This document shows positions 10,739 through 57,179 of a stretch of 64,000 bases of DNA, piece after piece; positions within the stretch are counted from its first letter, which is position 1, and every line of letters starts with the position of its first letter. The translations under genes and the position numbers were made by a program. Under the pieces are notes generated by a model. It did no database searches. It was not told the DNA's origin and saw nothing but the letters and a program-made list of their open reading frames with translations. Location of the stretch: positions 28,259-92,258 of the forward strand of contig JAZDOJ010000007.1 of NCBI GenBank assembly GCA_043798795.1, written 5' to 3'. The stretch is from Candidatus Omnitrophota bacterium (GTDB taxonomy: Bacteria; Omnitrophota; Gorgyraeia; Gygaellales; Profunditerraquicolaceae).

Positions 10739-11522
10739 ACGAATCGTAAGTTCTGTCCTTCTTATCGCCCTCATCATTGTCGGGATTCAGATCGACTGGC
10801 TCTGCGGTCTCCTGGTCGCTTTATTTATCATCGGGGGGCTTTACGAATTCTTTACCATGCTGGAGCACAAAGGGATCAGCCTGTATAAATATTGCGGGAT
10901 AGGTATCGGCGCTATCATTCCTTTTTCCTTGATCTTTCGTTTTGAACTCACCAAGAGCTGGGAGTTGCTGTTTATCGTTTTGGCATTGTTGTTTCTCATT
11001 CTTATGCAGTTTCGGCGCAGAGAGAACTCAGGGGTGATCGTGGGAATTTCCACGACACTCTTCGGCATCCTCTATGTCTCCTGGTTCTTGAGTTTCCTTA
11101 TCAAGATAAGGTATCTGGCAGGAGGGCTGGGTTTGATCAGCAGCATCCTGTTGATTACCAAATTAGGCGATATCGGGGCGTATCTGGTGGGCTCGCGATT
11201 CGGTAAAAGGCCTCTTATTCCGCGCATCAGTCCCAACAAATCCGTCGAAGGGGCCTTAGGGGGATTGATTTTTAGTATCCTGGGGGCCTTGCTGAGCAGA
11301 GCCTTCTTAGGTTTTGCTTACGGACATCTTTTTTTCCTGGGTCTTTTTTTTGGGCTCTTAAGCCAATTAGGGGATTTGTCCGAGTCACTGATGAAGCGGG
11401 ATTGCCAGGTTAAGGATTCAGGATCGATCTTTCCTGGCTTGGGAGGCGCCTTGGATTCGGTGGACAGTCTCCTGTTTACGGCCCCTGTTTTTTATTTTTA
11501 CATGAGTATCATTTTAAAATGA
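10728..11522 (+). CDS. cdsA: Phosphatidate cytidylyltransferase
   Basis: Polytopic membrane protein with the CDS signature near the C-terminus (KRDxxVKDSGSIFPGHGGxLDRxDS-like); ATG at 10728 overlaps the uppS stop. Confidence 0.85.
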   Translation: MQTRRIVSSVLLIALIIVGIQIDWLCGLLVALFIIGGLYEFFTMLEHKGISLYKYCGIGIGAIIPFSLIFRFELTKSWELLFIVLALLFLILMQFRRRENSGVIVGISTTLFGILYVSWFLSFLIKIRYLAGGLGLISSILLITKLGDIGAYLVGSRFGKRPLIPRISPNKSVEGALGGLIFSILGALLSRAFLGFAYGHLFFLGLFFGLLSQLGDLSESLMKRDCQVKDSGSIFPGLGGALDSVDSLLFTAPVFYFYMSIILK

Positions 11523-19103: not shown

Positions 19104-21197
19104 ATGGCGAAATTAAAGGAAAAGAAAGTGGAGCACAAGAAGGTCAAGGTCGTAACGCAAAAGACCAAAAAAACGGTTGGCAATAAGCCCGTTAGACTTA
19201 AGGTTTCTTTAAAGCCCAAAGAGAAAGCCGCCCTTAAGCCTAAAAAACCCCTTTCTGTCAAACCAAAAATTGTCAGAAAAAAAGCAAAGATAGCTGCAGT
19301 TTCTCCTGCGCCTCCAATTTTGACCCAGGAGCCTCAGGTCAAGAAGGTCGTGTCGCCACCTCCACCTCCACCTCCACCTGCGCCTGAGCCGCGCGTGGCT
19401 CCCATCACAAAACCGGCTCCTCAAGAAGTCGCTGTTACCCCCGCCAAAGAGCTTGAGCTTGAATTTCCCATCACCCTAAAGGATTTAGCAGTTAAATTAC
19501 AGGAGAAGCCTTCCACATTGATAAAGATTCTTATGGATATGAGGATCATGGTAGGTATCAATCAGACCCTCGAGGAAGCCGTGGTCAGCAAGATCTGTGA
19601 AAAATATCAGTATGCGATCAAGAAGGCCCCTGACCAGGAGGAATTGGCCTTACGCCTGCATAAGGAGACGGATTCGCCTGAAAATCTAAAACCCCGCTTT
19701 CCTATTGTGACTCTTATGGGCCATGTCGATCATGGTAAAACGTCTTTATTGGACGCTATCAGGAAATCCAAGGTTGTCGATTCAGAGCATGGGGGGATCA
19801 CCCAGCATATCGGCGCTTACAAAGTGATTCTTCCTCACGGCGAGATAACGTTCCTGGACACACCTGGCCATGAGGCTTTTACGGCGATGCGCGCCCGCGG
19901 AGCCAGCATTACAGATATTGTCGTACTGGTGGTGGCTGCGGATGACGGCATGATGCCACAGACCGAGGAGGCTATTGATCATGCGCGTGCGGCTGGCGTA
20001 CCCATCATTGTGGCTGTCAATAAGATGGATAAGCCCCAGGCAGATATCGACCGCGTGAAGAAACAGCTTTCTAAGCTTGAGCTGGCAGCAGAGGACTGGG
20101 GAGGAAAAACGATCACGGTCCCAGTGTCGGCAAAGACAGGCCAGGGAATGGATGACCTCTTAGAGATGATTCTTTTGGAAGCCCAGATGTTGGAGCTTAA
20201 GGCTAATCCCGAACGCCCGGCATCTGGCGTGGTGATAGAGTCGAAAATGGCCAAAGGTAGAGGCCCCGTAGTCACTTTGCTCATTCATAGTGGTACGTTG
20301 CATCTAAATGAAAATATCATCGTCGGCACCTTTTACGGAAAAATAAGAGCCATGTTTAACGATAGAGGTCATTCCGTGACCAGCGTTGGCCCTTCTTCTC
20401 CCGTTGAGGTCCTGGGGATCTCCGGGATTCCTGCGGCCGGAGAGCCGTTTTTTGTGATTGAAGATGAAAAAGAGGCCAAGGGATTGGCTGCCGCACGCAT
20501 GGAAAAATTGAAGCTTCGCCAGATGAAATCCGTTAAAAGAGTGAGCCTTGAGGATCTCCATGCAGAAATAGAGGCCGGTAAGATTAAGGAATTGAAATTG
20601 ATCATCAAGGCAGATGTGCAAGGGTCTTTGGAGGCGATCAAGGACACCTTGAATAAAATCAATGCTTCTGAGATCAAACTCGATTTTATTCATATGGGGG
20701 TAGGCAATATCAATGCGTCGGATGCCATATTGGCTGTTGCCTCCAATGCTCTTATCCTGGGGTTCAATATCGCACAGGATGAAGGCTCCAAAGAGATCGC
20801 GGCTAAGGAAGGGCTTGACATCAGGATGTATAACATTATCTATGAGCTGGCTAATGATATCAAGGCAGCTTTGGAAGGCATGCTTGAGCCTAAGATCAAG
20901 AAGGTCTTTGTGGGCAGGGCAGAAATCAGGAAGGTGCTCAAGCTTTCAAGAGCCGGTACGGTAGCCGGCTGTTTTGTAGCGAAAGGTAAAATCAGCCGTA
21001 ACAACCTCATTCACCTGGTCAGAAACGACGAACTTGTCTTCGAGGGAAAACTATCTTCTTTAAAACGCTTCAAGGATGATGTCCGGGAGGTCAGCGAAGG
21101 TTTTGAATGCGGCTTAACCTTGGCCGGATTCGATGATGTGCATGAAGGGGACCTCGTTGAGGCGTTTGAGATAGAGAAAATAGCACGCAAGCTATGA
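19104..21197 (+). CDS. infB: Translation initiation factor IF-2
   Basis: G-domain motifs [24 protein letters not shown]; 697 aa; lysine-rich N-terminus with a poly-proline tract. Confidence 0.95.
19356..19379 (+). repeat. Hexanucleotide tandem repeat (CCACCT)x4 encoding the poly-Pro run in IF-2
   Basis: ccacctccacctccacctccacct read directly; encodes PPPPPPPP. Confidence 0.8.
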
Positions 21198-22939: not shown

Positions 22940-23960
22940 GGGCCGGACTCCACCTTTCGTTCATGAGCCTCAAGAGACAGAAGAGGATGTTGTCCTCAAT
23001 ATTTCTTTAAGGCCGAAGAGATTGTCTGAGTTTGTCGGCCATAAAGAGATTGTGGATAATCTCAAAATATCCATTCAGGCGGCGAAACAAAGGAAGGAGC
23101 CCCTGGAGCATGTGTTATTAAGCGGCCCGCCGGGCTTAGGCAAGACGTCCCTTGCCCACATTGTCGCTCATGAGATGAGCTCCAAGATTACGGCCACCTC
23201 CGGACCCGCTATAGAGCGCGCCGGTGATTTGATAGGAATTCTCACCAATCTTGAAAAAGGGGACATCCTCTTTATTGACGAGATCCATCGGCTTTCCAAA
23301 GTGGTGGAAGAGTTTCTGTATCCGGCCATGGAGAGTTTTCAGATTGATTTTGTCATTGATAAGGGGCCTTATGCCAAGACCATCAAGTTTAACCTCAAGC
23401 CTTTTTCGCTGGTGGGAGCTACGACCCGAAGCGGCCTGTTAGCAGCGCCTCTGCGGGGGCGGTTCGGCATATTTTATAACTTGGATTTTTACAAGATAGA
23501 AGACCTGGCCAAGATCATCAAGCATTCCGCTAAGATTCTGAGCATGGATATAGAAGAGGAAGCGGCTTTTGAGATCGCCAGACGCAGCCGTGGCACGCCC
23601 CGCATTGCCAATAGGCTCCTGCGCCGGATCAGGGATTACGCCCAGGTCGCCAAAATAGCCACGGTCAACGCAGGATGTGCGGCCAAGACCCTGGATGAAT
23701 TGGGGATTGACAAGGCGGGCCTGGATGATTTGGACCGTAAGGTGCTGAAGTTGATTCTGGAATCTTACTCAGGTGGGCCCGTGGGTGTTGAGGCCTTGGC
23801 AGCCAGCCTGAATGAAGAAGTCGACACCATCGCCGATACGGTCGAACCGTATTTATTGAAAGCCGGATACCTGAAGCGCACCTCCCGCGGCCGCCTGGCC
23901 ACCAAATTGTCCTTTGAACACTTCGGCCTCAAATACGAAAAACAACCGGAATTATTCTAA
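22908..23960 (+). CDS. ruvB: Holliday junction branch-migration helicase RuvB
   Basis: LRPKRLSEFVGHKEI followed by LLSGPPGLGKTSLA Walker A; AAA+ and winged-helix C-terminus. Confidence 0.95.
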   Translation: MAEETRKTLLKGRTPPFVHEPQETEEDVVLNISLRPKRLSEFVGHKEIVDNLKISIQAAKQRKEPLEHVLLSGPPGLGKTSLAHIVAHEMSSKITATSGPAIERAGDLIGILTNLEKGDILFIDEIHRLSKVVEEFLYPAMESFQIDFVIDKGPYAKTIKFNLKPFSLVGATTRSGLLAAPLRGRFGIFYNLDFYKIEDLAKIIKHSAKILSMDIEEEAAFEIARRSRGTPRIANRLLRRIRDYAQVAKIATVNAGCAAKTLDELGIDKAGLDDLDRKVLKLILESYSGGPVGVEALAASLNEEVDTIADTVEPYLLKAGYLKRTSRGRLATKLSFEHFGLKYEKQPELF

Positions 23961-24022
23961 AGCGTTTCTAAACCCAATCTCAAAACGTTTCTAATCTTAA
24001 TCGTAAAACTGCTTTTTTCCAG

Positions 24023-24565
24023 ATGAAACTTTTACTCCATACCTGTTGCGCGCCGTGCGTGATTTATCCTTTGGAGAGGCTAAAGGCGCAAGGATATAGC
24101 GTCAGGGGATATTTTTACAACCCTAATATCCATCCCTTGAGCGAATACAAAAATCGTTTGAAAGCGGTCATGGATTTCAGCCATAAGCATAATCTGGAGA
24201 TGGTCCATCCGGAATACCATCCGGAGGAATTCTTTCAAGCCGTAAATCTAAAGGAAGATAGGCCCGAAAGATGCGCCATATGCTGGTCTTTAAGACTTCA
24301 AAGGTGCGCTTTGGCCGCAAAAGAAATGGGCTGCGGTTATTTTTCTACGACTCTGCTCGTCAGTCCCTATCAGGACCAGGAGAAACTAAAAGTCATAGGA
24401 AATGACATCTCCCGTGAAACAGGAGTGGAATTTCTTTATGAAGATTTTCGGCCCGGCTTTAAGATGGCGCATGAGCAGGCTAAGAACGAAGGGATCTATT
24501 GCCAGAAATATTGCGGATGTCTTTACTCAATGAAGCCCAGACTTACGTTCACTAACGTTCCGTAA
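24023..24565 (+). CDS. queH: Epoxyqueuosine reductase QueH (DUF208)
   Basis: MKLLLHTCCAPC N-terminal Cys cluster and CxxC...CGC pattern typical of QueH. Confidence 0.8.
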   Translation: MKLLLHTCCAPCVIYPLERLKAQGYSVRGYFYNPNIHPLSEYKNRLKAVMDFSHKHNLEMVHPEYHPEEFFQAVNLKEDRPERCAICWSLRLQRCALAAKEMGCGYFSTTLLVSPYQDQEKLKVIGNDISRETGVEFLYEDFRPGFKMAHEQAKNEGIYCQKYCGCLYSMKPRLTFTNVP

Positions 24566-24580
24566 GTCTGTGGCTGAATT

Positions 24581-24628
24581 GATCCTTGACATTTACACTT
24601 GAAAAATCATTTGAAAATGTCAAGGATC
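24581..24628. promoter_or_regulatory. Perfect 14-bp inverted repeat (GATCCTTGACATTT / AAATGTCAAGGATC) separated by 20 nt, downstream of queH
   Basis: Arms at 24581-24594 and 24615-24628 are exact reverse complements; each arm contains TTGACA. Confidence 0.6.
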
Positions 24629-24696
24629 CAATTCGCACTTATAACTTACTCACACTTTCAGTGTTCGTAAGTTATGTGCTCATTGGAAATCGAGAG

Positions 24697-26048: not shown

Positions 26049-28863
<2,815 letters not shown>

Positions 28864-45460: not shown

Positions 45461-46070
45461 AAAAAGAATCATTCTGGGTGTAACAGGCGTGTTTGGCAGC
45501 GGTAAGACCACCGTCTCTAAGATCTTTAAGTCTTTCGGAGTTGACGTCATCGATGCAGATAGGATTGCCCATCGCTGCCTGAACCAAGATCCTCATGCGC
45601 GCAAGAAGGTTATTCGTACGTTTGGCACAAAGATTCTGGATGCGCATGGTCGAATAAGCCGAAAAAAATTAGCCAAGGTAGTTTTTAGTAACAGAATTTC
45701 ATTACGGAGGCTCAACAGGATTTTGCATCCGGCTATCATCAGAATCATAAAAGGAAAGATGGGACTTTCCCGTTCAAGGGTTGTTGTCTTGGATGCGCCT
45801 CTCTTGCTGGAGGCGGGATTAAAAACTGTGGTAGACAAGCTAGTGGTGGTAACGATTACCCCGCCCAAGCAGCTTGAGAGGATCGCGAAAAGAGATTCCT
45901 TGGAACCTCAAGCCGTAAAGGTGCGGACCAGGAGTCAGATTCCCCAATCCCAAAAGGTGCAGTTGGCGGATTTTATCATAGATAACAGCGGCAGTCTCAA
46001 GAATACAAAAAGACAGGTGAAGGATGTTTGGAGCAAGTTGAACTTATCCCTCACACCCGAAAGGCGGTAG
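45438..46070 (+). CDS. coaE: Dephospho-CoA kinase
   Basis: ILGVTGVFGSGKTTV P-loop; about 200 aa; exact start uncertain (overlaps the glgA end). Confidence 0.85.
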   Translation: MPRQNLCKKRIILGVTGVFGSGKTTVSKIFKSFGVDVIDADRIAHRCLNQDPHARKKVIRTFGTKILDAHGRISRKKLAKVVFSNRISLRRLNRILHPAIIRIIKGKMGLSRSRVVVLDAPLLLEAGLKTVVDKLVVVTITPPKQLERIAKRDSLEPQAVKVRTRSQIPQSQKVQLADFIIDNSGSLKNTKRQVKDVWSKLNLSLTPERR

Positions 46071-46085
46071 ATGGGTGCTTGGGAT

Positions 46086-46119
46086 TAATTTGCTGAATCC
46101 GCTATAGCGGGCAAATTAA
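46086..46119 (+). promoter_or_regulatory. Nested palindrome in the rho leader: outer 9-bp stem TTAATTTGC/GCAAATTAA enclosing the perfect 12-bp palindrome CCGCTATAGCGG; the 3' arm abuts the SD
   Basis: Read directly from the sequence; the AGGAGG SD follows at 46119-46124 and the GTG start at 46130. Confidence 0.55.
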
Positions 46120-46129
46120 GGAGGAAAGA

Positions 46130-47386
46130 GTGGAAAAATTAGATATCGGAAACTTAAAAGACATGAAGATCATCGAGCTGAGTAAATTGGCTAGGGAACT
46201 CAATGTGAACGGCACGAGCGGCCTCAAGAAACAGGACCTCATTTTTAAAGTTCTTCAGGCCCAGGCCGAGAAAGAGGGGCTCATGTTCGGTGAGGGGATT
46301 TTAGAGATATTGCCCGAAGGATTCGGCTTTTTAAGGAGCCCGAACTACAATTACCTGCCCTGTCCGGACGACATTTATATTTCTCCGTCACAGATAAGGA
46401 AATTTGATTTGAGGACGGGAGACACGGTCAGCGGCCAGATCCGGCCGCCTAAGGAGGGGGAGAAATATTTTGCGCTTCTCAAAGTGGAGGCGGTGAACTT
46501 TGAGAATCCGGAAGAGGTCAAGGAAAAAGTCCTGTTCGATAATCTCACCCCTGTTTATCCGCGTGCCCCCTTTAATCTGGAGACAAAGCCGGAAGAGATA
46601 TCCATGCGGGTGATGAGTCTGCTGACACCCATCGGCAAAGGCCAGCGAGGGCTGATTGTTGCTCAACCTTATAGCGGTAAGACCGTTCTTTTGCAGAAGA
46701 TTGCCAATGCCATAACCGCCAATACGCCGGATGTGGTCTTGATTGTGCTTCTGATAGACGAACGGCCGGAGGAAGTGACCGATATGCAAAGAAACGTTAA
46801 GGGAGAAGTTATCTCATCCACCTTTGACGAGCCGCCGGAACGCCATGTGCAAGTTGCTGAGATCGTTCTTGAAAAAGCCAAAAGGCTCGTTGAGCATAAG
46901 AGGGATGTGGTGGTGCTTCTGGACAGTATCACGCGCCTGGCGCGGGCGTATAACTCCGTTATACCGCACAGCGGAAAAGTCCTCTCAGGGGGTATCGACT
47001 CCAATGCCCTTCAAAAACCAAAAAGATTTTTTGGGGCGGCGCGTGCCATTGAAGAGGGAGGAAGCCTGACCATCATTGCTACGGCACTGGTTGAGACCGG
47101 AAGCCGCATGGATGACGTGATCTTCGAGGAATTTAAAGGCACGGGTAATATGGAATTGCAGTTGGACAGGAATTTATTTCAGCGCCGGATTTACCCTGCC
47201 ATGGATATCAAACGTTCCAATACCCGACACGAAGAATTGCTGGTGAAACAGGAGCAATTACAGAAGATCTGGATCTTAAGGAAAGTCCTGAATGAGCTGA
47301 GCAACGTGGAGGCGATGGAGCTTCTCATTGAGAAGCTTTCCAAGACGAAGAATAACGAAGAGTTTTTGAACAGCATGAATCAATAA
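46130..47386 (+). CDS. rho: Transcription termination factor Rho
   Basis: N-terminal RNA-binding OB domain ([14 protein letters not shown]), Walker [17 protein letters not shown]- and R-loops; GTG start. Confidence 0.95.
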
Positions 47387-47400
47387 TGAGTTTACGGTTA

Positions 47401-47461
47401 CCCCCCCAGCTCAGTTAAATTTAAGGGGGGATCCCGCCAGCTATCAGATATCAGGGCGGGA
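47401..47461 (+). other. Two tandem GC-rich hairpins (C7...G6 and TCCCGCC...GGCGGGA) between rho and rpmE, without a U-tract
   Basis: Stems read directly: 47401-47407 pairs with 47425-47430; 47432-47438 pairs with 47455-47461. Confidence 0.5.
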
Positions 47462-47463
47462 AA

Positions 47464-47482
47464 AGTTCAGACTTCAAAGTAG
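47464..47482 (+). repeat. 7-bp periodic AGTTCAN-like repeats (AGTTCAG ACTTCAA AGTAG) upstream of rpmE
   Basis: Read directly; same motif family as the repeats at 53227, 55074 and (inverted) 49241. Confidence 0.5.
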
Positions 47483-47496
47483 AAAGGAAAAAGAAA

Positions 47497-47700
47497 ATGA
47501 AAGATAAGATTCATCCGAATTATAAAGAGTGCACGATTGTCTGCGCCTGCGGAGAGACCATCCATACGCGTTCCACCAAACCCAGTATCCGCGTCGAGAT
47601 ATGTTCTAAGTGCCATCCGTTTTTTACGGGGAAGCAAAAATTCGTGGATTCCGCGGGCCGTGTGGATAAATTCCTGAAAAAGTACGGCAAGAAAAGCTAA
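47497..47700 (+). CDS. rpmE: 50S ribosomal protein L31
   Basis: [28 protein letters not shown] with Cys zinc-ribbon; 67 aa. Confidence 0.95.
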
Positions 47701-47706
47701 GATTAT

Positions 47707-48771
47707 ATGTTTGAACAGTTACAAAAGTCAGAACAGCGCTATGGAGAATTAGAGCAGCTTTTGGCCTCATCCGACGTCATCTCTGACAAGGATAGTTACC
47801 ATAAGTTAGCTAAAGAGTTTTCGGATCTTAAAGACACGGTTTCATTCTTCAGGGAATATAAAAGGATCGCCAAGGAGATGGAGGACCTGGCAGCGGTGCT
47901 CAAAGAGAAGCACGATAAGGAGTTCGTTGATTTAGCCAAAGAAGAACTTCAGGATTTAGAAGCCCGTAAAACTCATTTAGAGGAAAGCTTGAAGGTGGCC
48001 TTGGCCGGTGAAGATCGAGATAGCGGAAGGGATGTCATCGTAGAGATAAGGCAGGGTACAGGAGGGGATGAAGCGGGATTGTTTGCGGCGGATCTTTACC
48101 GGATGTACGTTAAATATGCGGCTCATAAAGGCTGGATGGTGGAATCTATGTCTTCTAGTTCTAATGAGGCCGGCGGATTGAAAGAGGTTATTTTTAGCGT
48201 CAAAGGAAAAGAGGCGTACAGAAGGCTTAAATTTGAAAGCGGTGTCCATCGCGTGCAACGTGTGCCCGTGACAGAGGCCTCGGGCCGGATTCATACGTCT
48301 ACGGCAACCGTTGTTGTCCTGATCGAACCGGAAAAAACGGACCTGGTCATCGATGCGAAAGACCTCAAGATTGACACCTATCGGTCCAGCGGCCCCGGTG
48401 GCCAGCATATGCAGAAAACCGACTCGGCCGTCAGGATTACGCATATTCCCTCAGGCGTTGTGGTCGCTTGTCAGGATGAGCGTTCCCAGCTTAAGAATAA
48501 GCTCAAGGCCATGAGGATTCTTGGGGCCAAGCTCCTGGATATGAAAAAAGAGCAGGAATGCAGGAAATTATCTCAGGCGCGCAAGTCCCAGATCGGCACG
48601 GGTGACCGCAGTGAAAAAATCCGCACGTATAATTTTCCAGATCGCAGAGTCACCGACCACCGCATCAATTTTACCCTGCACCGGTTAGAGGCCGTCCTGG
48701 AGGGAGAGCTGGATGAATTATCGGAAGCCCTGATCAGGGCTCAAGAAGAAAAAGCAAAGGAGACAGGATAA
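47707..48771 (+). CDS. prfA: Peptide chain release factor 1
   Basis: GGQ motif (SSGPGGQHMQKT) and PxT-type recognition region. Confidence 0.95.
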   Translation: MFEQLQKSEQRYGELEQLLASSDVISDKDSYHKLAKEFSDLKDTVSFFREYKRIAKEMEDLAAVLKEKHDKEFVDLAKEELQDLEARKTHLEESLKVALAGEDRDSGRDVIVEIRQGTGGDEAGLFAADLYRMYVKYAAHKGWMVESMSSSSNEAGGLKEVIFSVKGKEAYRRLKFESGVHRVQRVPVTEASGRIHTSTATVVVLIEPEKTDLVIDAKDLKIDTYRSSGPGGQHMQKTDSAVRITHIPSGVVVACQDERSQLKNKLKAMRILGAKLLDMKKEQECRKLSQARKSQIGTGDRSEKIRTYNFPDRRVTDHRINFTLHRLEAVLEGELDELSEALIRAQEEKAKETG

Positions 48772-48775
48772 AGGC

Positions 48776-49582
48776 ATGAACGAAGCCGAACTCACTTTTA
48801 CACAGATTTTGGATTATAGTCGGTCGGACCTGTATCAAAACAGGCATTCATTTTTGGAGAAAGGTCAAGCCTCTTTGATAGCTTCCGTATTAAAAAGAAG
48901 AATTCATGGAGAACCGCTGCCGTATATTCTGAAAAAGACAGAATTCATGGGTCTGGAATTTAAAGTGAACAGGTGCGTACTTATCCCCAGGCCGGAGACG
49001 GAAATCTTGGTTGAGACGGCCCTAAAATATGTCACCACGTCACCACGTCACCACGTCACCCGCGTGAACATTTTGGATGTAGGTACAGGTTCGGGATGTA
49101 TTGCCATAAGTCTGGCTAAATTTCTACCAGATACGGATATAACAGCTACGGATATTTCAGAAAGGGCGATAGAAATCGCCAGGCAGAATGCGCTCATCCA
49201 TAATGTAGAAATCAATTTTTTATGCAGTGATTTGTTTGACAACTACGAACTACGAACTATGAACTATGAACTCATCATCTCTAATCCTCCCTACGTTCGC
49301 ACGCAAGATTTGAATTCTCTGCAGCCTGAGATTAGCTACGAGCCTCGGATCGCTTTGGATGGGGGGCAAGACGGAATGGATTTTTACCGCCGCATCATAA
49401 AGGAAGCCCCGAATCATTTAGAGAAAGAAGGCTTTTTACTCCTTGAGATCGGGTACGCTCAATTAGAACCCATAAGAATGCTATTCAAGAAGTCAGGAAG
49501 TTTAAAGATCATGGACGTTGTTAAAGACTATAATAACATCGATAGAATCATAGTAGCCAGAAAAATGAATAGACTGAGGTGA
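48776..49582 (+). CDS. prmC: Release-factor glutamine N5-methyltransferase (HemK/PrmC)
   Basis: SAM motif LDVGTGSGCIAISLA and NPPY catalytic motif; contains two in-frame tandem-repeat tracts. Confidence 0.9.
   Translation: MNEAELTFTQILDYSRSDLYQNRHSFLEKGQASLIASVLKRRIHGEPLPYILKKTEFMGLEFKVNRCVLIPRPETEILVETALKYVTTSPRHHVTRVNILDVGTGSGCIAISLAKFLPDTDITATDISERAIEIARQNALIHNVEINFLCSDLFDNYELRTMNYELIISNPPYVRTQDLNSLQPEISYEPRIALDGGQDGMDFYRRIIKEAPNHLEKEGFLLLEIGYAQLEPIRMLFKKSGSLKIMDVVKDYNNIDRIIVARKMNRLR
49031..49060 (+). repeat. 8-bp tandem repeat (GTCACCAC)x3.75 inside the prmC coding sequence (encodes VTTSPRHHVT)
   Basis: gtcaccacgtcaccacgtcaccacgtcacc read directly. Confidence 0.85.
49241..49275 (-). repeat. 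Five tandem 7-bp units inside prmC whose reverse complement reads AGTTCAT AGTTCAT AGTTCGT AGTTCGT AGTTG
   Basis: aactacgaactacgaactatgaactatgaactcat on the plus strand; same motif as the intergenic AGTTCAN repeats. Confidence 0.8.
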
Positions 49583-49588
49583 TGAAAG

Positions 49589-50851
49589 ATGGATAAGCTG
49601 ATCATAGAAGGGGGAGAGCGATTATCAGGGGAAGTGACGGTGTCAGGGGCCAAGAATGCCGTGCTTCCCATTTTGGCAGCAACTTTATTGACCGAGGATG
49701 CCTGTGTCATCCGGGGCGCACCTTATCTGCGGGATACCCAAACCATGGTCAAGATCTTGCGTTCTTTAGGAAAGGTCGCTGAATTTGACAAGGGCGTCAT
49801 CAGTCTGGTATCGGGTCGAAGCGTCAACTACACGGCGGATTATAAGCTCGTTTCGACCATGCGGGCTTCTTTTTGTGTCCTCGGTCCTCTTTTGGCAAAA
49901 TTTAAAAAGGCCAAAGTCTCTCTGCCGGGCGGTTGCGTTATCGGGGTCAGGCCCGTGGACTTGCATGTGAAAGGATTAAAAGCCCTGGGTGCTGGTATTG
50001 ATATTGATTCAGGTTATATCGTGGCAAAGGCGGACAGGCTTAAAGGCAGCCGTATCTATTTGGGCGGTGTTTGCGGTTCATCGGTCTTGGCAACAGATAA
50101 TGTGATGATGGCAGCGGTTCTTGCCCGAGGCAGGACGATTATCGAATCTGCGGCCTGCGAGCCGGAGGTCGTGGATTTAGCGGAGTTTTTGATCAAGATG
50201 GGAGCTAAAATAAAAGGTCATGGTACTCCGACCATAGAAATCGAGGGGGTCAAGCATCTGCATGGAGCGACCCACACCATCATCCCCGACAGAATAGAGG
50301 CCGGCACCTTGATGGTCGCAGCTTTGATTACGCGGGGAGATATCCTGATCAAAAATGTCTTTTTGCATCATTTGGGTGCGGTGATAGACAAATTAGAGGA
50401 AGCAGGGGCCTCTGTCCATAAGACGGACAGTTCCGTGCGGGTACGCGCCCGAAAAAGACTGAAGCCCGTGAACGTCACGACCCTGCCTTATCCTGGTTTT
50501 CCTACAGATATGCAGGCACAGATCATGGGATTGATGAGCGTGACGCAGGGTATCAGCGTTATCACCGAGAAGATTTATCCCGACAGGTTTATGCATGTGG
50601 CTGAGCTGAATCGTATGGGCGCCCATATTCAGAGAGAGGGGCCGCACGCCATTGTGGAGGGTGTCAAGGGTTTATCCGGCGCGCCGGTGATGGCCTCGGA
50701 TTTACGCGCATCCGCCTGTCTTATTCTGGCAGGCCTGGCGGCCAAGGGAAAGACGACTGTTTCCAGAATCTATCATTTGGAGCGCGGATACGAAAACATC
50801 GATGAGAAATTGCGTCGGTTAGGCGCCAGGGTGTGGAGGGAGAAAGAATAG
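49589..50851 (+). CDS. murA: UDP-N-acetylglucosamine 1-carboxyvinyltransferase
   Basis: MDKLIIEGG N-terminus, active-site Cys region (KVSLPGGCVIGVRPVDLH); 420 aa. Confidence 0.95.
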   Translation: MDKLIIEGGERLSGEVTVSGAKNAVLPILAATLLTEDACVIRGAPYLRDTQTMVKILRSLGKVAEFDKGVISLVSGRSVNYTADYKLVSTMRASFCVLGPLLAKFKKAKVSLPGGCVIGVRPVDLHVKGLKALGAGIDIDSGYIVAKADRLKGSRIYLGGVCGSSVLATDNVMMAAVLARGRTIIESAACEPEVVDLAEFLIKMGAKIKGHGTPTIEIEGVKHLHGATHTIIPDRIEAGTLMVAALITRGDILIKNVFLHHLGAVIDKLEEAGASVHKTDSSVRVRARKRLKPVNVTTLPYPGFPTDMQAQIMGLMSVTQGISVITEKIYPDRFMHVAELNRMGAHIQREGPHAIVEGVKGLSGAPVMASDLRASACLILAGLAAKGKTTVSRIYHLERGYENIDEKLRRLGARVWREKE

Positions 50852-50854
50852 GCC

Positions 50855-51418
50855 ATGATTCTTATGATCGATAACTACGATTCCTTCACCTTTAACCTGG
50901 TTCAGTATCTCAAGATTTTGGGCCAAGAGGTCAAGGTATTCAGAAACGATAAGATAACCCTGGAAGGCATCAGGAAGCTGGACCCTGAGAGAATCGTTAT
51001 TTCTCCCGGCCCCGGTCGTCCGGAAGGCGCAGGAATTTCCTGCGATTGCATAAGAGAATTCGCAGGGAAAATTCCTCTTTTGGGCGTATGTCTGGGCCAC
51101 CAATGTTTAGGGTTCGTTTATGGGGGGCACATTGGGTCTGCCAAAAGACTGATGCACGGAAAGATTTCGCGCATCTATCATAACGGGAAGGATATCTTTA
51201 AAGGCATCTCCAATCCCTTTGAGGCCACGCGTTACCATTCTTTGGTGGTTGAAAGAAAGGGGCTTCCGGATTGCCTGGAGATAACCGCCTGGACGCAAGA
51301 TAAAGAAATCATGGGGCTCAAGCATAAGAAATGCCCTCTCTGGGGCGTGCAATTCCATCCGGAATCCATTTTAACCAAGGCGGGTTTAAATATTTTAGCC
51401 AATTTCTTAAGAGAATGA
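50855..51418 (+). CDS. trpG: Anthranilate/aminodeoxychorismate synthase glutamine amidotransferase component II
   Basis: Class I GATase triad (GVCLGHQ ... H-x-E: WGVQFHPES); 187 aa. Confidence 0.9.
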
Positions 51419-52428
51419 TCCAACAGATCATAGAGTCGTTATCACAAGGTCAAAACTTAAGCAGCGCTTTCATGCAGTCCGTCATGGAAGAGATCATGAC
51501 CGGCAAAGTGGATACACAGGATATTGTTTCCTTTTTGACCCACTTAAGCCGTAAGGGCGAGACGGTGGAAGAGTTGACAGCCGCCGCTCTCATCATGCGC
51601 CAATACGCGACAAGCATACGTTCGTCGAAACATCAAGTGATTCTGGATACCTGCGGTACGGGCGGTGATCAGTCTGGCCTCTTTAATGTTTCTACGGCTG
51701 TTGCGTTTGTGGCTGCCGGTTGTGGCATTGCCGTGGCTAAACACGGAAATCGTTCGGTCTCCAGTTGTTGCGGCAGCGCGGATATCCTGGAAGCTTTAGG
51801 CATCGATATCCTGATGAGCAAAGAAAAAATTGAAAAGTGCTTAGATGGGATCGGCATCGCTTTTTTATTCGCTCAAAATCTGCATCCGGCCATGAAATAT
51901 GCCATGCCGGCAAGAAAACAGATTGGAAAAAGGACGATGTTTAATATCCTGGGCCCCCTGACGAACCCCGCAGGAGCCACGCACCAGTTGATCGGCGTCT
52001 TTGATAAGCGTTGGACTCAAGTGCTGGCTGAGGTGCTGGGTAACCTGGAGAGCGTTCACAGCCTTATCGTTCACAGCGAAGACGGCCTGGATGAAATAAG
52101 CACGATCGCAAAGACGCACGTTTCTGAGCAGCATAAAGGCACCATTAGAAATTACCAGCTGGACAGTGAGGCGTTCGGATTGAGAAGAGCCAGGCGGGAA
52201 GACCTGACAGGAGGAACGGTTCAGGATAATGCCAGGATATTGGTAGAGATCTTAAAGGGAGAGCCAGGTCCCAGGCGGGAGATTGTTTTATTGAATGCCG
52301 CAGCAGCTATTTACGTAGCAGATAAAGTCTCTTCCATCCAGGAGGCCCTCATACTTGCTCAAGAGTCCATTGATTCTGGTAAGGCTTATGAGAAGCTGGA
52401 ATTGATGAAGGCCTATTCTACAAGATGA
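51415..52428 (+). CDS. trpD: Anthranilate phosphoribosyltransferase
   Basis: [25 protein letters not shown] and KHGNRSVSS motifs; ATGA overlap with trpG. Confidence 0.95.
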
Positions 52429-53213
52429 AAAAGACAGATACGCTCAAAGAGATCGTTGCGAAAAAGAAGAAAAGGATCGCTTTGGCCAGGCAGCAATTTC
52501 CCGAAGAGGATTTAAAGGCTCGGTTAATGAACTTGGCGCCGACAAGGTCTCTGATGGAAGCGATCCATAAGCCCCGCACCATTTCCCTGATCGCCGAAAT
52601 AAAGAAACAGTCTCCTTCCCGTGGCACGATCCGTCAGGATTTCAACCACATGGAGATTGCCAAGGCCTATCAGGAGACAGGAGTCCAGGCTGTATCCGTC
52701 TTGACCGAAGAGGATTATTTCGCAGGAAGCCTTTCCACTATGAGCGAAGTCAGGAATCTGGTTGAGGCCCCTATCTTAAGAAAAGATTTTGTTTTGGAAC
52801 CCTATCAGATCTATGAGTCGCGTCTTTTCGGGGCCGATGCCATCCTGTTGATTGCGGACCTGTTGACCAAAGACAAGATATCAGAATTCCTGCAGATGGC
52901 CTCAGATCTGAAGATGCAGTGCCTGGTGGAGGTTCATACGGAAAAGGAGCTAAAAAAGGTTTTGAATCTGGATGTGCCGTTGATCGGCATCAATAATCGC
53001 GACCTCCATACGCTGGAAGTTGATTTTAAGACTACGGAGAGGCTTTTTCCTTTAATTCCAAAGGATAAAATCGTGGTCGTGGAAAGTGGGGTCAAGAGCT
53101 ATTCCGACGTCTTGTTTCTGAAAATCCTCGGGGTAGCAGCGGTCTTGATCGGCGAGGCCTTTATGGAGGCCCCCGATATAAAGAAAAAAATTGAAGAAGT
53201 GATGGGATGGTAG
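52425..53213 (+). CDS. trpC: Indole-3-glycerol phosphate synthase
   Basis: IAEIKKQSPSRG and LIGINNRDL motifs; 262 aa. Confidence 0.95.
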   Translation: MKKTDTLKEIVAKKKKRIALARQQFPEEDLKARLMNLAPTRSLMEAIHKPRTISLIAEIKKQSPSRGTIRQDFNHMEIAKAYQETGVQAVSVLTEEDYFAGSLSTMSEVRNLVEAPILRKDFVLEPYQIYESRLFGADAILLIADLLTKDKISEFLQMASDLKMQCLVEVHTEKELKKVLNLDVPLIGINNRDLHTLEVDFKTTERLFPLIPKDKIVVVESGVKSYSDVLFLKILGVAAVLIGEAFMEAPDIKKKIEEVMGW

Positions 53214-53226
53214 AGCCTAATTCAGA

Positions 53227-53243
53227 GTTCAGAGTAAACAAGT
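53227..53243 (+). repeat. AATTCAG AGTTCAG AGT 7-bp periodic repeat in the trpC-trpF spacer
   Basis: Read directly; same family as the repeats at 55074-55097. Confidence 0.5.
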
Positions 53244-53856
53244 GGTTAAGGTCAAGATATGCGGGATCACCAACTTAAAAGACGCCCTAGCTGCTCAAGA
53301 AGCAGGTTGCGATGCGCTCGGGTTTGTATTCTACAGGAAAAGCAAACGTTATATCTTACCCCTTAAAGCCAGGGGTATCATCAGGGTTTTGGATAAGGAC
53401 ATCCTGAAAGTCGGCGTGTTTGTAGATGCGAAAGAGAAAACAATAAAAAATATTGCGAACTCCTGTGCTCTTGATATACTACAGTTTCACGGCAAAGAAA
53501 CGCCTGCGTTCTGCCTGAAGTTTGCTGGATTCAAGGTCATAAAGGCGCTCAGGGTCAAAGATAAGATAAATCGGACTGACGTCCTAAGATATAAGACCTT
53601 CGGCTATTTGTTCGATACATACGTAAAGAAGCATCCGGGGGGCACAGGTAGGACCTTTGAGTGGAGTTTATTAAAGTTTTCTAATAAATTAAAGAAACAG
53701 GTATTCTTATCAGGTGGGTTAGACAAGGGAAACGTAAAAAAAGCCATAAGGATCGTGCGGCCAGCCTGGGTGGATGTTTCAAGTTCCGTCGAATCAAAGC
53801 CCGGCAGGAAAGACCATCAAAGGTTGCGTGCCTTTATCAAAGCTGCCAAAATATAA
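53242..53856 (+). CDS. trpF: Phosphoribosylanthranilate isomerase
   Basis: VKICGITNLKDALAAQEAGCDALGFVF N-terminus; GTG start. Confidence 0.9.
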   Translation: MVKVKICGITNLKDALAAQEAGCDALGFVFYRKSKRYILPLKARGIIRVLDKDILKVGVFVDAKEKTIKNIANSCALDILQFHGKETPAFCLKFAGFKVIKALRVKDKINRTDVLRYKTFGYLFDTYVKKHPGGTGRTFEWSLLKFSNKLKKQVFLSGGLDKGNVKKAIRIVRPAWVDVSSSVESKPGRKDHQRLRAFIKAAKI

Positions 53857-53879
53857 ATTTTTAAGTGAGGATCATTTAG

Positions 53880-55070
53880 ATGAAGAAGATGTTACCGGAT
53901 AAGAAAGGGCATTTCGGGGAATTCGGGGGCAGGTTTGTGCCGGAGACCCTCATTTATGCCCTGGATGAACTGGAGCGTGAATTCAGGAAGGCCAGGCACG
54001 ACAGAAAATTCAACCGCGAGCTGGATTATTATCTTAAGGAGTATGCGGGCCGGCCCACGCCTTTGTATTTTGCGAAGAATCTGAGTCGACTCTTGGGCGG
54101 AATAAAGGTTTATTTGAAAAGAGAGGATCTGTTGCATACGGGCGCGCACAAGATCAACAATACGCTGGGACAGGTTTTGCTGGCGCTTCGGATGAAAAAG
54201 TCACGCGTCATCGCAGAGACGGGCGCGGGGCAGCATGGCGTGGCTACGGCAACCGTGGCGGCGTTGTTTGGCTTGACGTGTGATATTTACATGGGGGAAG
54301 AAGATATAAGACGGCAGAGCCTCAATGTTTATCGTATGAAATTATTAGGTAGCCGCGTCATTCCGGTCGCAAGCGGGACAAAGACGCTCAAGGATGCCAT
54401 GACCGAGGCTTTAAGGGATTGGGTGACGAATGTGCGTAAGACCCATTATATCATAGGTTCTGTTGCAGGTCCCCATCCGTATCCGGTCATGGTGCGTGAT
54501 TTTCAGGCCGTCATCGGTCGGGAGGCAAGGTCTCAGATTCTCAAGAAAGAAAGCCGGCTCCCCGATTATCTGGTGGCATGCGTCGGCGGGGGCAGTAATG
54601 CCATGGGTTTGTTCCATCCTTTCTTTAATGATAAAAAGGTCAAAATGCTTGGTGTTGAGGCTGCGGGAACAGGGCTTGCTTCCGGCCGGCACTCCGCCAG
54701 TCTGGTTGCGGGAAGGCCGGGAGTCTTACACGGCTCAAAATCCGACCTTCTGGAAGATAGATTCGGTCAGATTAAAAACGCCTACTCGATTGCTCCAGGC
54801 CTGGATTATCCGGGCGTAGGCCCTGAGCATGCCTATTATAAAAGAATAGGCCGGGCGCGGTATGTCGCGGTTAGAGATGAAGAGGCCCTGGAAGGTTTTA
54901 AGCTTCTTTCGGAGGTAGAAGGGATTATTCCTGCCCTTGAGCCAGCGCATGCGATTTTTTATCTGAAGAAATTGAGAGGCAAAATAAATAAGAACTCCCT
55001 TATCATCGTCTGCCTTTCGGGAAGAGGGGATAAAGATACGCCTGTCGTAGCTCAGAGATTGAGATTATAA
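53880..55070 (+). CDS. trpB: Tryptophan synthase beta chain
   Basis: PLP-lysine region HTGAHKINN, and [10 protein letters not shown]. Confidence 0.95.
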
Positions 55071-55073
55071 GAG

Positions 55074-55097
55074 AGTTCATAGTTCAAAGTTCATAGT
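55074..55097 (+). repeat. AGTTCAT AGTTCAA AGTTCAT AGT: 3.4 tandem copies of a 7-bp unit in the trpB-trpA spacer
   Basis: Read directly from 55074-55097. Confidence 0.85.
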
Positions 55098-55122
55098 AAA
55101 ATCAAAATCAAGAACAAAAACA

Positions 55123-55908
55123 ATGAACAGAATTGATAAAAAGTTCAGGGAATTAAGAAGGGCGCATAAAAAAGCTTTTATTGCTTTCATCACTGCCGGA
55201 TACCCAAATTTACAAACGACCCGGAAACTTATCCTAGAATTTGCCAAAAAAGGCGTGGATATAATCGAACTGGGAGTGCCCTTTTCGGACCCCTTGGCAG
55301 ATGGCCCCATCATCCAGGAGGCCTCCCAAAAATCCCTAGAAAGAAATACACATCTTATAGACATCCTGCGCTTGGTTAAAGGCGTACGCCATTCCGTTGA
55401 TATCCCCCTTTGCCTTATGACCTACTTCAATCCCGTATTCTGTTTTGGTGAAAAAAAGTTTATTGATCAGGCGGCATCTTGCGGGGTGGATGGTTTGATT
55501 CTTCCGGACCTCACGCCCGAGGAAGGAATATCTTTCGCGCGCTACGCCCGAAAGAAGGAGTTGAATATTATCTATTTTCTTTCACCTACCAGCACACCCA
55601 AAAGAATGAAATATATATCGGGCATCTCTCGAGGCTTTATTTATTATGTTTCTTTGACGGGCGTCACCGGTGCAAGAAAGGATCTGCCAACGGACATCAT
55701 CCAAAAGATTCGCGCGATTAAAAAAATAACGGCAAAATCCGTCTGCGTGGGGTTCGGCGTATCCCGTCCGGAACAGGTCAGGCAGATTCAGAAATTCGCC
55801 GATGGTGTTATCGTCGGAAGCGCTATCATCCAGAAGATAAAGCAGCATATCCAAGACCCTCGCCTTGTCCAGAAAGTCAGCCAATTCGTCTCTTATCTTA
55901 AGTCTTAA
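55123..55908 (+). CDS. trpA: Tryptophan synthase alpha chain
   Basis: FITAGYPNL, ELGVPFSDPLADGPIIQ and GFGVS motifs. Confidence 0.95.
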   Translation: MNRIDKKFRELRRAHKKAFIAFITAGYPNLQTTRKLILEFAKKGVDIIELGVPFSDPLADGPIIQEASQKSLERNTHLIDILRLVKGVRHSVDIPLCLMTYFNPVFCFGEKKFIDQAASCGVDGLILPDLTPEEGISFARYARKKELNIIYFLSPTSTPKRMKYISGISRGFIYYVSLTGVTGARKDLPTDIIQKIRAIKKITAKSVCVGFGVSRPEQVRQIQKFADGVIVGSAIIQKIKQHIQDPRLVQKVSQFVSYLKS

Positions 55909-55910
55909 CC

Positions 55911-57179
55911 ATGTATAAAAAGACACTTTTACATAATGGTTTAAGGGTCGTTAGTCACCGTATGCCGGCCATGCAATCCGTGGCTTTGGGTATCTGGATT
56001 AAGGTAGGGGGCCGATATGAATCGGGACGCAACAAAGGCATATCTCATTTTCTAGAGCACCTTCTATTTAAAGGGAGCAAGAAATTCTCTTATCGTAAAC
56101 TTAAGGAATCCATTGAGGGGGTGGGAGGATCTCTCAATGGGTTCACCTCAGAAGAGTTTACCTGTTATTTGGCTAAGATACCGTCGCGCCACATAGAGAT
56201 CGCTTGGGATGTTTTGTCGGATATGGCTTTGAATCCGCTTCTGCCGGCCCAAGAAGTAGAAAAAGAAAGGACCGTTATTCTAGAAGAAATCAAGATGTAC
56301 AAAGACCAGCCCCAGGCGTATGTCTATGAATTACTAGTGGGATTGCTTTGGCCGGCTCAACCTCTGGGAACTCCCATTATTGGTACGAGGGACTCCGTCA
56401 CCAAGATGAAAAGAGGAGAAATTCTTTCCTTCAAGGAACGATTTTATACTCCTCTTAATATGGTGATCAGTGCTGCCGGTCAGCTGAAACACGAAAAGCT
56501 CGTGAGGCTGGCACAGAGGACCTTTTCTGATGTCCAAGAAGGCTCTCCCAACGATTTTGTAAGAGCCAAAGAAAATCAGGAATCGCCCTCCCTCAAGATT
56601 TTCCACAAGGAAACAGAACAGAGCCACATGGCTTTAGGATTTCACAGCCTTAAACGGGATCACTCGTTACGGCACGCGTTGGGGATCCTGAATATTGTTT
56701 TGGGCGCGAATATGTCCAGTCGTCTGTTTAATGAGATCAGGGAGAAGAGGGGGTTGGCCTATGAAATCGGCACACTCGTAAAGCGCTATCTGGACACAGG
56801 GGTCTTTCTGGTGCATGCAGGAATAGATAACGCAAGAGTCCAAGAAGCCGTTTCATTGATCTTAGGGCAGCTGAAGCTTTGTAAAAAAGAGTTGATCAGC
56901 ACAGATGAATTCAGGCGTGCCAAGGAATTTTATCTGGGGCAGCTGATGCTGGCTTTGGAAGATACGCTGGACCACATGCTCTGGATCGGCGAGACCACCA
57001 TAAGCCTGGGGCGCTCTTACACGCCAAGCGAAATCATCAAAGAGGTCGATAAGGTCAACAGAGAAGATGTGCGGTTGGCGGCGAGAGCCATTTTTCAGGA
57101 AAGAAAACTCAAAATGGCCCTGATCGGCCCTTTGCAGGACAGTCACCATAAAATCCAGAAGGAGCTAAGGATCGATTGA
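55911..57179 (+). CDS. M16-family zinc peptidase (insulinase/pitrilysin-like)
   Basis: Inverted zinc motif HFLEHLLFKG (HxxEH) and downstream Glu; 422 aa. Confidence 0.85.
   Translation: MYKKTLLHNGLRVVSHRMPAMQSVALGIWIKVGGRYESGRNKGISHFLEHLLFKGSKKFSYRKLKESIEGVGGSLNGFTSEEFTCYLAKIPSRHIEIAWDVLSDMALNPLLPAQEVEKERTVILEEIKMYKDQPQAYVYELLVGLLWPAQPLGTPIIGTRDSVTKMKRGEILSFKERFYTPLNMVISAAGQLKHEKLVRLAQRTFSDVQEGSPNDFVRAKENQESPSLKIFHKETEQSHMALGFHSLKRDHSLRHALGILNIVLGANMSSRLFNEIREKRGLAYEIGTLVKRYLDTGVFLVHAGIDNARVQEAVSLILGQLKLCKKELISTDEFRRAKEFYLGQLMLALEDTLDHMLWIGETTISLGRSYTPSEIIKEVDKVNREDVRLAARAIFQERKLKMALIGPLQDSHHKIQKELRID

Follow-up and report, generated by a model that had tools for sequence, protein, structure and literature searches.

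What are the short tandem heptamers that stand between the genes of a tryptophan operon in Candidatus Omnitrophota: a signal that the cell reads, or DNA that has grown where two genes used to overlap? We analysed a 64-kb stretch (the window) of one contig from a metagenome-assembled genome of this phylum, to which all window counts below are limited. In the window, tandem copies of the unit AGTTCAN occur at four loci, three of them in spacers between genes. We found that these arrays exceed chance, that they are absent or variable in copy number in relatives, that they keep a 7-nt phase with the gene junction, and that the lineage as a whole has an excess of period-7 arrays. With moderate confidence, we regard the AGTTCAN arrays as simple sequence repeats (SSRs) of the heptanucleotide kind typical of the lineage, which arise and change length through slippage at gene junctions and serve as unstructured spacers between cistrons. 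The observations are direct; from them we infer slippage as the mechanism and a passive, uncoupling spacer as the role.

Heptamer arrays in the window

The TrpA protein of the window is 100% identical to one from a Ca. Omnitrophota metagenome-assembled genome, encoded on a contig of 105,792 bp. The arrays lie in the co-oriented gene order rho-rpmE-prfA-prmC-murA-trpGDCFBA. NCBIfam confirmed rho, rpmE, prmC, murA, trpC, trpF, trpB, trpA and trmD in the window, including all six gene names used in a first-pass annotation of this DNA (rpmE, prmC, trpC, trpF, trpB and trpA). The gene of 420 amino acids (aa) and of the EPSP-synthase family that lies between prmC and trpG (49589-50851) is murA (TIGR01072, 561 bits), not aroA. 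The four AGTTCAN loci are as follows.

55074-55097, plus strand: heptamer array AGTTCAT AGTTCAA AGTTCAT AGT, 3.4 copies, in the trpB-trpA spacer
53219-53235, plus strand: heptamer array AATTCAG AGTTCAG AGT, in the trpC-trpF spacer
47464-47482, plus strand: weak array AGTTCAG ACTTCAA AGTAG, in the rho-rpmE spacer; weakest of the sites, one of its units being altered
49241-49272, minus strand: inverted array (AGTTCAT)2(AGTTCGT)2, inside prmC

All four fall within 7.7 kb. The three intergenic arrays have 2.1-3.4 copies, and each reads in the sense direction and ends 6-25 nt ahead of the start codon that follows. The trpB-trpA array starts 4 nt past the trpB stop codon (TAA, 55068-55070) and ends 25 nt ahead of the trpA ATG (55123), and the trpC-trpF array ends 6 nt ahead of the trpF GTG. 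Upstream of the rpmE array is a terminator-like hairpin (CCCGCC...GGCGGG) that follows rho; downstream of the array is the rpmE Shine-Dalgarno sequence AGGA (47485-47488, 8 nt before the ATG), and the array ends 14 nt ahead of the start codon. Read directly from the sequence, the trpB-trpA and rpmE arrays and the inverted copies in prmC are as the first-pass annotation described them; the trpC-trpF array has the sequence that was given, at a position 8 nt lower than the 53227-53243 assigned to it. The same annotation had placed the intergenic arrays just upstream of a ribosome-binding site, which is true of rpmE only, as trpF and trpA have no clear Shine-Dalgarno sequence.

The hexamer AGTTCA is not enriched in the window (24 occurrences vs 28.8 expected); the tandem form is. 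We found 6 window matches to AGTTCANAGTTCA with at most one mismatch, where 0.31 were expected, and 7 matches to the 17-nt pattern AGTTCANAGTTCANAGT with at most three mismatches, where 1.12 were expected. All 7 are at the four loci, and none of 100 shuffles reached this number, which places the tandem heptamer above its shuffled expectation in the window; the annotation had proposed this comparison for the whole genome. When a strong array was defined as one with at least 11 of 12 period-7 matches, the window held only two, at 49240-49273 and 55074-55093; both are longer than statistically expected by the long-SSR criterion, and in Markov simulations 90% of runs lacked any array of this strength and 0.7% had two. 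These two have one unit in common, as reverse complements.

The arrays at 53219 and 47464 fail the array-strength simulation on their own. Moreover, a lenient a-posteriori family test (any 6-mer core, two units, at most one mismatch) was not significant, with families of 4-5 loci arising in most random sequences. Hence, these two short sites rest on the 17-nt pattern and on the comparative data. The lenient test and the shortness of the two sites are what would favour chance, in which unrelated low-complexity fragments happen to look alike. Against it are the concentration of the 17-nt matches at the four loci, the unit common to the window's two strongest period-7 arrays, and the recurrence of the unit elsewhere: AGTTCAN, or more broadly the AGTTC family, is found at homologous positions and array hot spots of the related loci L003, L004, L125 and L146. 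We therefore consider chance extremely improbable, and the earlier description of the heptamer as a dispersed micro-repeat stands.

Gene junctions with and without arrays

Syntenic loci of relatives were collected through TrpA homologues and through a metagenome scan with an alignment of MurA. At the trpC-trpF junction, the window reads as an uninterrupted series of heptamers.

53207-53248, plus strand: phase block ATGGTAG AGCCTAA TTCAGAG TTCAGAG TAAACAA GTGGTTA, from the trpC stop heptamer to the trpF start heptamer

The stop heptamer and the start heptamer are exactly 35 = 5x7 nt apart, and the array keeps the phase of the trpC stop codon. A 4-nt overlap of the ATGGTAA type is kept at trpC/trpF in 12 relatives. 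Spacers of 26-48 nt built from heptamers occur in the window and in L003, L001, L146, L127, L128 and L159, and their units vary by genome: AGTTCAG, AGTTCGK, TAGTTCA/TAGTCGA, TTAGTCG, GTGTTAG and TAAGCTA, with L003 carrying AGTTCGG AGTTCGT AGT. Each of these arrays opens at the trpC stop, with one copy of the junction heptamer on either side of the array. The L128 units, GTGTTAG/GTGCTAG, agree at 6 of 7 positions with GTGGTAG, the junction heptamer of that genome, and in L159 each unit begins with the TAA stop of L159. In a concatenated-protein tree, the array-bearing genomes occupy three or more branches, each with sister genomes that have retained the overlap. Judged by sequence, the trpC stop heptamer and the trpF start heptamer of the window are most plausibly duplicated copies of an ancestral ATGGTAA stop/start overlap.

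The trpB-trpA junction shows the same phase, with a longer spacer.

55071-55122, plus strand: whole trpB-trpA spacer, 52 nt, an insertion relative to the ATGA overlap of relatives
55098-55122, plus strand: A-rich spacer tail AAAATC AAAATC AAGAAC AAAAAC A, repeating every 6-7 nt, with weak complementarity to the array (GAAC/AAC/AUGAAC)

The distance from ATAAGAG (55067) to the trpA start heptamer ATGAACA (55123) is 56 = 8x7 nt. The spacer has no ATG, GTG or TTG and no Shine-Dalgarno sequence, and folded alone it reaches -1.3 kcal/mol. In five relatives whose TrpA is 82-90% identical (L001, L002, L003, L126 and L208), trpB and trpA overlap at an ATGA stop/start and no spacer separates them. L125 (TrpA 87%) has a homologous spacer, ...TAAGGAGTG AGTTCAT AGT AAAACCAAAAACAAAACCC ATG, with 1.4 copies vs 3.4 in the window; hence, copy number differs between relatives, as the first-pass annotation had suggested checking. 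L004 carries at this junction an unrelated insert of 198 nt with other heptamers and hairpins. At the rho-rpmE spacer, the AGTTCAN array of the window is not present in L003, L004 or L127.

These comparisons suggest a path by which an array could arise. The start state would be a pair of overlapping stop/start codons, ATGA at trpB/trpA and ATGGTAA at trpC/trpF, and slipped-strand mispairing or tandem duplication would copy the junction heptamer. Such a duplication would be harmless, with the stop retained in one copy and the start in the other. The inner copies would then drift and become homogenised, with growth and loss in 7-nt steps. On the polycistronic mRNA, the product would be an A/U-rich, unstructured spacer free of start codons, with NAG or TAG every 7 nt. 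Because this spacer takes the place of the stop/start overlap, the downstream cistron would be reached by re-initiation or by loading independent of a Shine-Dalgarno sequence.

A further spacer of the operon differs among relatives. In L129, L138, L142, L156, L159 and L127, the trpF-trpB spacer holds an extra small open reading frame (ORF) that starts MKKCPYCAEEIQDEA... and has a zinc-ribbon-like look with a hydrophobic tail; the window lacks it.

Period-7 arrays and hairpin elements across the lineage

We took a census of tandem repeats in 88 related loci, all from partial genomes, that together make up 978 kb. The commonest period reported by Tandem Repeats Finder was 7. Period-7 arrays with at least three copies numbered 72, vs 3.0 in Markov shuffles, and at the same copy threshold there were 17 arrays of period 6, 12 of period 8 and 10 of period 9. 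Among coding arrays, TAG occurs in the unit in 1 of 32 and its complement in 6 of 32. A population-level comparison for slippage, L001 vs L002, was uninformative, as the two are essentially identical.

Coding arrays are concentrated in prmC, which has 32 of the period-7/8 arrays of the census; the neighbouring genes have almost none. Two further arrays of the window belong here.

49031-49060, plus strand: octamer array (GTCACCAC)3.8, in the prmC linker loop, aa ~86-95; the first of two prmC hot spots
28383-28417, plus strand: five period-7 units CAAGTCA CTGGTCA GAAGTCA CCGGTCA CAAGTCA, in a trmD loop

The inverted AGTTCAN array of prmC (49241-49272) covers codons ~156-166, NYELRTMNYEL, just before NPPY. 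Its mixture of AACTACG and AACTATG, C/T variants of the unit, avoids an in-frame TGA. In coding DNA, the AGTTCAN unit would survive only in orientations and variants that avoid stops, as in this loop. Arrays orthologous to it are found in L003, L004, L134, L146 and L150. More broadly, prmC orthologues across Omnitrophota, from loci with MurA identities of 55-100%, carry 7- or 8-nt arrays at two fixed loops, aa ~88-93 and aa ~156-162 (L001, L003, L004, L127, L129, L132, L134, L140, L145, L146, L149, L150, L165, L170, L185, L190 and L192). The units vary by genome, with 4-5 copies in a row often 100% identical; L149 and L150, at 89.5% nucleotide identity, have unrelated prmC arrays. The trmD units have a GTCA core in common with the prmC octamer GTCACCAC and with the prmC arrays of many relatives, and GTCA is found in 13 units vs 1.9 expected.

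Hairpin elements with heptamer arms occupy spacers of the same operon in relatives. A small family, GGGTCAATAG...ATAGACCC, with TAGTCAA/TAGTCTA arms, is present at rho-rpmE in L003 and L129 and at murA-trpG in L129, L149, L150 and L159 (L003 ~665-690; L129 ~7825-7860 and ~11280-11365; the murA-trpG spacers of L149, L150 and L159). Between L149 and L150, at 89.5% nucleotide identity, there is a 42 = 6x7-nt indel in which both arms of an array hairpin are expanded, a change by whole units that fits growth and loss in 7-nt steps. Larger hairpin elements of ~150-170 bp, resembling miniature inverted-repeat transposable elements (MITEs), fill the prmC-murA, murA-trpG and trpB-trpA spacers in relatives (L001 2190-2350 and 3640-3800; L004 3470-3600, 4885-5025 and 9800-9990). 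Their arms are A-rich, heptamer-like units (CAAAATC/AAATCCA) with the core CTGCCTGCCGRCAGGCAGG, and L001 has two near-identical copies of ~170 bp, at prmC-murA and murA-trpG. L192 has a hairpin inside prmC.

A distinct hairpin lies in the rho-rpmE spacer of L127 (2167-2239), with tandem-octamer arms (GTGTCAAW)4 and (ACTTTGAT)4. Its G.U-type asymmetry gives a much more stable fold on the sense strand (-40.8 vs -25.6 kcal/mol), and GGTGTCA also forms the prmC array of L127.

The window arrays might be remnants of mobile elements, that is, solo arms or decayed hairpins like MITEs or repetitive extragenic palindromic (REP) elements that inserted at junctions and were spread by an element-specific mechanism. 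Relatives do have such elements at the same junctions, namely the two L001 copies and similar ones in L004; the small hairpin family sits at differing junctions in L003, L129, L149, L150 and L159; and the L192 hairpin lies within a gene. Units common to arrays within one genome, an insert common to the window and L125 although these are not sisters, and the resemblance of the window spacer tail AAAATCAAAATCAAGAAC to CAAAATTCAAAACAAGAA at the same junction of L004 fit as well. However, by the criterion for REP- or MITE-like elements, the window arrays have no inverted partner and fold weakly, the core motif CTGCCTGCCGRCAGGCAGG is absent from the window, and no transposase, REP-associated tyrosine transposase (RAYT) or target-site signature was identified. 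In addition, the arrays keep the phase of the local junction heptamer and have duplicates of it on both sides, which points to birth in situ. On balance, we hold a mobile origin to be unlikely, though not negligibly so.

Several observations weigh against birth by local slippage as a full account. Purely local slippage gives no account of one unit at four loci within 7.7 kb. Pairs of arrays from the same genome have a unit in common in 33% of cases vs 3.7% between genomes, where sharing means at least 6 of 7 positions matching in any rotation or on either strand and the pairs are not independent. Of 31 intergenic arrays, 11 have TAG in their unit as read on the sense strand vs 2.6 expected, which could be a product of selection and not of stop-codon ancestry. 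Over deep divergence, the same junctions and the same two prmC loops keep arrays or acquire them again, which is unusual for neutral microsatellites. Finally, the window and L125 have the trpB-trpA spacer in common and are not sisters in a TrpBA tree, which is weakly resolved. Slippage alone therefore leaves three things unaccounted for: the genome-specific units common to several loci, the 7.7-kb clustering and the prmC hot spots.

A different reading takes up these points. The arrays would be the cis part of a lineage-specific system, in which a co-evolving factor recognises the preferred 7-nt unit of its genome and, at scattered sites that include the junctions and the two prmC loops, seeds this unit or homogenises its copies. 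The factor could be an oligomeric protein that binds NAG-N4 in RNA or DNA, or a templated enzyme that adds repeats. We judge such a system to be quite unlikely. If it were real, the arrays would constitute a post-transcriptional or genome-maintenance network, not the debris of slippage.

The AGTTCAN unit is not confined to Omnitrophota, as a scan of contigs listed AGTTCAN arrays in many phyla among its matches. In viral contigs, there are 92 AGTTCAN stretches vs 40 and 61 for two composition-matched control heptamers. Since this excess is only 1.5-2.3x, the preference is modest and the unit is not universally special. Among the matches listed for other phyla, 31 of 139 arrays are inside ORFs of at least 150 aa, 30 of those in sense.

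Some of these outside loci have features of their own. At 5-6 of 120 loci among the matches listed, AGTTCAN arrays flank or precede genes for 23S rRNA intervening-sequence proteins (PF05635, E 2e-38); these are L083 (3626-4100), L077, L076, L114 and L064, from Acidobacteriota, Thermodesulfovibrionales, Ignavibacteria and others, and in L083 the arrays are inverted on either side of the PF05635 gene. In four Acidobacteriota/Pyrinomonadaceae loci (L015, L029, L039 and L080), inverted pairs of (AGTTCAA)4-5 form perfect intergenic hairpins. L055 (2300-2790) has four tandem units of ~105 bp, each with (AGTTCAA)3-4.

Other repeats of the window are separate from the heptamer arrays. A motif of ~23 nt with AACGTTTCTAA is present in 2.5 copies at 23952-24009, upstream of an ORF at 24023-24565, with palindromes nearby at 24581-24628 and 24641-24675. 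The repeat (CCACCT)4 at 19356-19379 encodes an in-frame proline run, PPPPPPPP, and is an ordinary coding hexamer repeat.

Folding, binding sites and known repeat systems

The spacers of the window are no more structured than shuffles. One fold stands out: in 55060-55130 (71 nt), the three array units pair with GAAC, AAC and AUGAAC at the trpA start to form a hairpin of -8.5 kcal/mol (z -2.3; 4 of 200 shuffles were as stable). This hairpin could couple translation, with the array as the 5' arm that pairs GUUCAU with AUGAAC and a ribosome that ends at the trpB stop melting it, so that the coupling lost with the overlap is recreated. The left arm starts 4 nt past the stop codon, and hairpins with array arms are common in relatives' spacers. 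Yet the hairpin is not the dominant fold in a 131-nt context, the antisense strand folds slightly better (-10.8 kcal/mol), the homologous spacer of L125 is less structured than shuffles (z +1.8), and the idea is inapplicable to the trpF and rpmE arrays. A hairpin that sequesters the trpA start codon was rejected on the first three of these results, and coupling of this kind is very unlikely in our assessment. Across 97 operon spacers, the sense fold was better in 55 and the antisense fold in 25; for the array-containing spacers the split was 11 vs 6, which is not significant. Hence, the bias of the array spacers toward the sense fold provides no proof at the RNA level.

The spacing of triplets invites another explanation. 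In the trpB-trpA array, NAG triplets (GAG, UAG, AAG and UAG at 55073, 55080, 55087 and 55094) are 7 nt apart, an XAG-N4 layout; TAG arises only where N = T, in two frames, at 55080 and 55094. HutP reads XAG triplets, with A and G specific, at 7-nt spacing and three per face, and it needs two sites of three triplets, 12-17 nt apart, around a G-C-rich terminator stem (PMC2425495). TRAP binds ~9-11 (G/U)AG triplets with 2-3-nt spacers in the trp leader or over a start site (see also PMC2425495). The arrays might thus be (NAG-N4)n sites on the operon mRNA that are read by an oligomeric HutP- or TRAP-like protein and tune downstream translation. Like those systems, they place NAG triplets on the sense strand near a gene, strictly 7 nt apart, and their location in a trp operon is reminiscent of TRAP. 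Each of the three intergenic arrays is sense and close to a start; a TAG every 7 nt is preserved through changes in the 4-nt spacer, at trpC-trpF in L003, L146, L127 and L128 and at rho-rpmE in L129; unit sharing within genomes would fit a co-evolving factor; and MacGregor put forward the same idea for TAACTGA repeats (PMC4679880).

However, neither known architecture is present here. A TRAP-like trp attenuation site was rejected, as there are four triplets with 4-nt spacers vs 9-11 with 2-3-nt spacers and no match to MtrB. A HutP-type site has little in its favour beyond the triplet spacing, as the array is a single site with no second site, no 12-17-nt linker and no terminator stem as in hut. 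As weak evidence, tblastn with HutP and MtrB queries gave no match to either in the window or in the 978 kb of relatives' partial genomes. Nor are the array sites conserved between relatives: most close relatives have no trpB-trpA spacer and many no trpC-trpF spacer, and copy number ranges from 1.4 to 5. The units differ too, as L159 has TAA, which matches its own stop codon, and not TAG, the trpC-trpF units of the window have GAG, and the same genomes hold many arrays built of units that lack NAG (GTCACCAC, CAAAATC). A binding site of this kind is improbable, with some small chance of being right. The direct-repeat protein- or RNA-binding element offered by the first-pass annotation found no positive support, considering the missing spacers, the drift of the unit, zero Rfam 15 matches at the gathering score over the whole window, the lack of a conserved structure and the lack of a HutP/TRAP-like gene in the sequence available. 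The arrays are not a conserved regulatory element of trp or rpmE. Hence, with no conserved structure, no HutP-type second site or terminator, and arrays that relatives can dispense with, a passive role is favoured.

Nor are the arrays phase-variation SSRs. They are like those of host-adapted bacteria in having a unit that is not a multiple of three and a copy number that differs between relatives. However, a scan of 46000-56500 for promoter and terminator consensus sequences found none at the arrays, with counts at or below the shuffle level. As the arrays lie between cistrons, and not in a promoter spacer or at the 5' end of a coding region, gaining or losing a unit switches no frame and no promoter.

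The slippage-born spacers that we favour resemble heptamer families described in other phyla. Cyanobacterial heptanucleotides of the short tandemly repeated repetitive (STRR) type were reportedly described by Mazel et al. in 1990. STRR sequences form a few unit families per genome, mostly in non-coding DNA, and their arrays are usually longer and very numerous; the mechanism of their spread is unknown. The AGTTCAN arrays, at four loci, are alike in being a tandem heptanucleotide family dispersed in one genome, and differ in their host, Ca. Omnitrophota and not a (heterocystous) cyanobacterium, and in their unit, which is not one of the canonical STRR units. We know of no description that links STRR sequences to overlaps at gene junctions. 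Use of STRR sequences for fingerprinting has been mentioned (PMC5088731).

Geobacter metallireducens has families of 4-5 tandem 7-nt units (GGACCGG; MTYCTGA) as well as 8-nt units (Aklujkar 2009, PMC2700814). As here, they lie between and within genes, with some pairs on opposite strands, and a role as regulator sites was proposed for them but not demonstrated; unlike here, the units are GC-rich, each family has ~16-49 copies, the phylum is another one, and no evidence was given on origin or copy-number variation (PMC2700814). Long SSRs as a class were treated by Mrazek in 2007, who, as summarised in PMC4679880, found that in many genomes heptanucleotides outnumber the other classes of long SSR and proposed polymerase slippage as their source. 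The long SSR of that work is a statistical category and not a defined element, and units shared among loci and fixed hot spots such as those of prmC are reportedly not addressed there. For tandem repeats in Omnitrophota, our literature search found no relevant paper.

The closest described case is the TAACTGA direct repeat of marine Beggiatoaceae, some Cyanobacteria and Bacteroidetes, which occurs in 2-6 copies and whose function is unknown (MacGregor 2015, PMC4679880). Like the AGTTCAN arrays, these are dispersed heptamers, mostly intergenic and forward, a few nt upstream of starts and often without a Shine-Dalgarno sequence (PMC4679880). Their forward units carry stops, and the copies in ORFs are reversed and fall in peripheral loops (PMC4679880); the prmC copy is reversed too. 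TAACTGA repeats number from scores to hundreds of sets per genome (PMC4679880); AGTTCAN has four loci in 64 kb, and the window has no TAACTGA array (TAACTGATAACTGA with at most two mismatches). Because AGTTCAN gives TAG only when N = T, its stops are not in all three frames, unlike those of TAACTGA.

Dispersed heptanucleotide repeats, such as STRR, TAACTGA and the Geobacter families, have thus been known for decades without agreement on their origin or function. The Omnitrophota operon offers a natural series, from overlapped junctions through opened junctions in 7-nt phase to differences in copy number between close relatives, and the series gives a testable model of array birth by duplication of a stop/start heptamer and of the uncoupling of genes. 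Going by their sequences, the AGTTCAN arrays appear to be a further case of these known repeats; they differ from TAACTGA in unit and phylum, and in the direct comparative evidence, unusually clear here, for copy-number change and for birth from the heptamer of a stop/start overlap.

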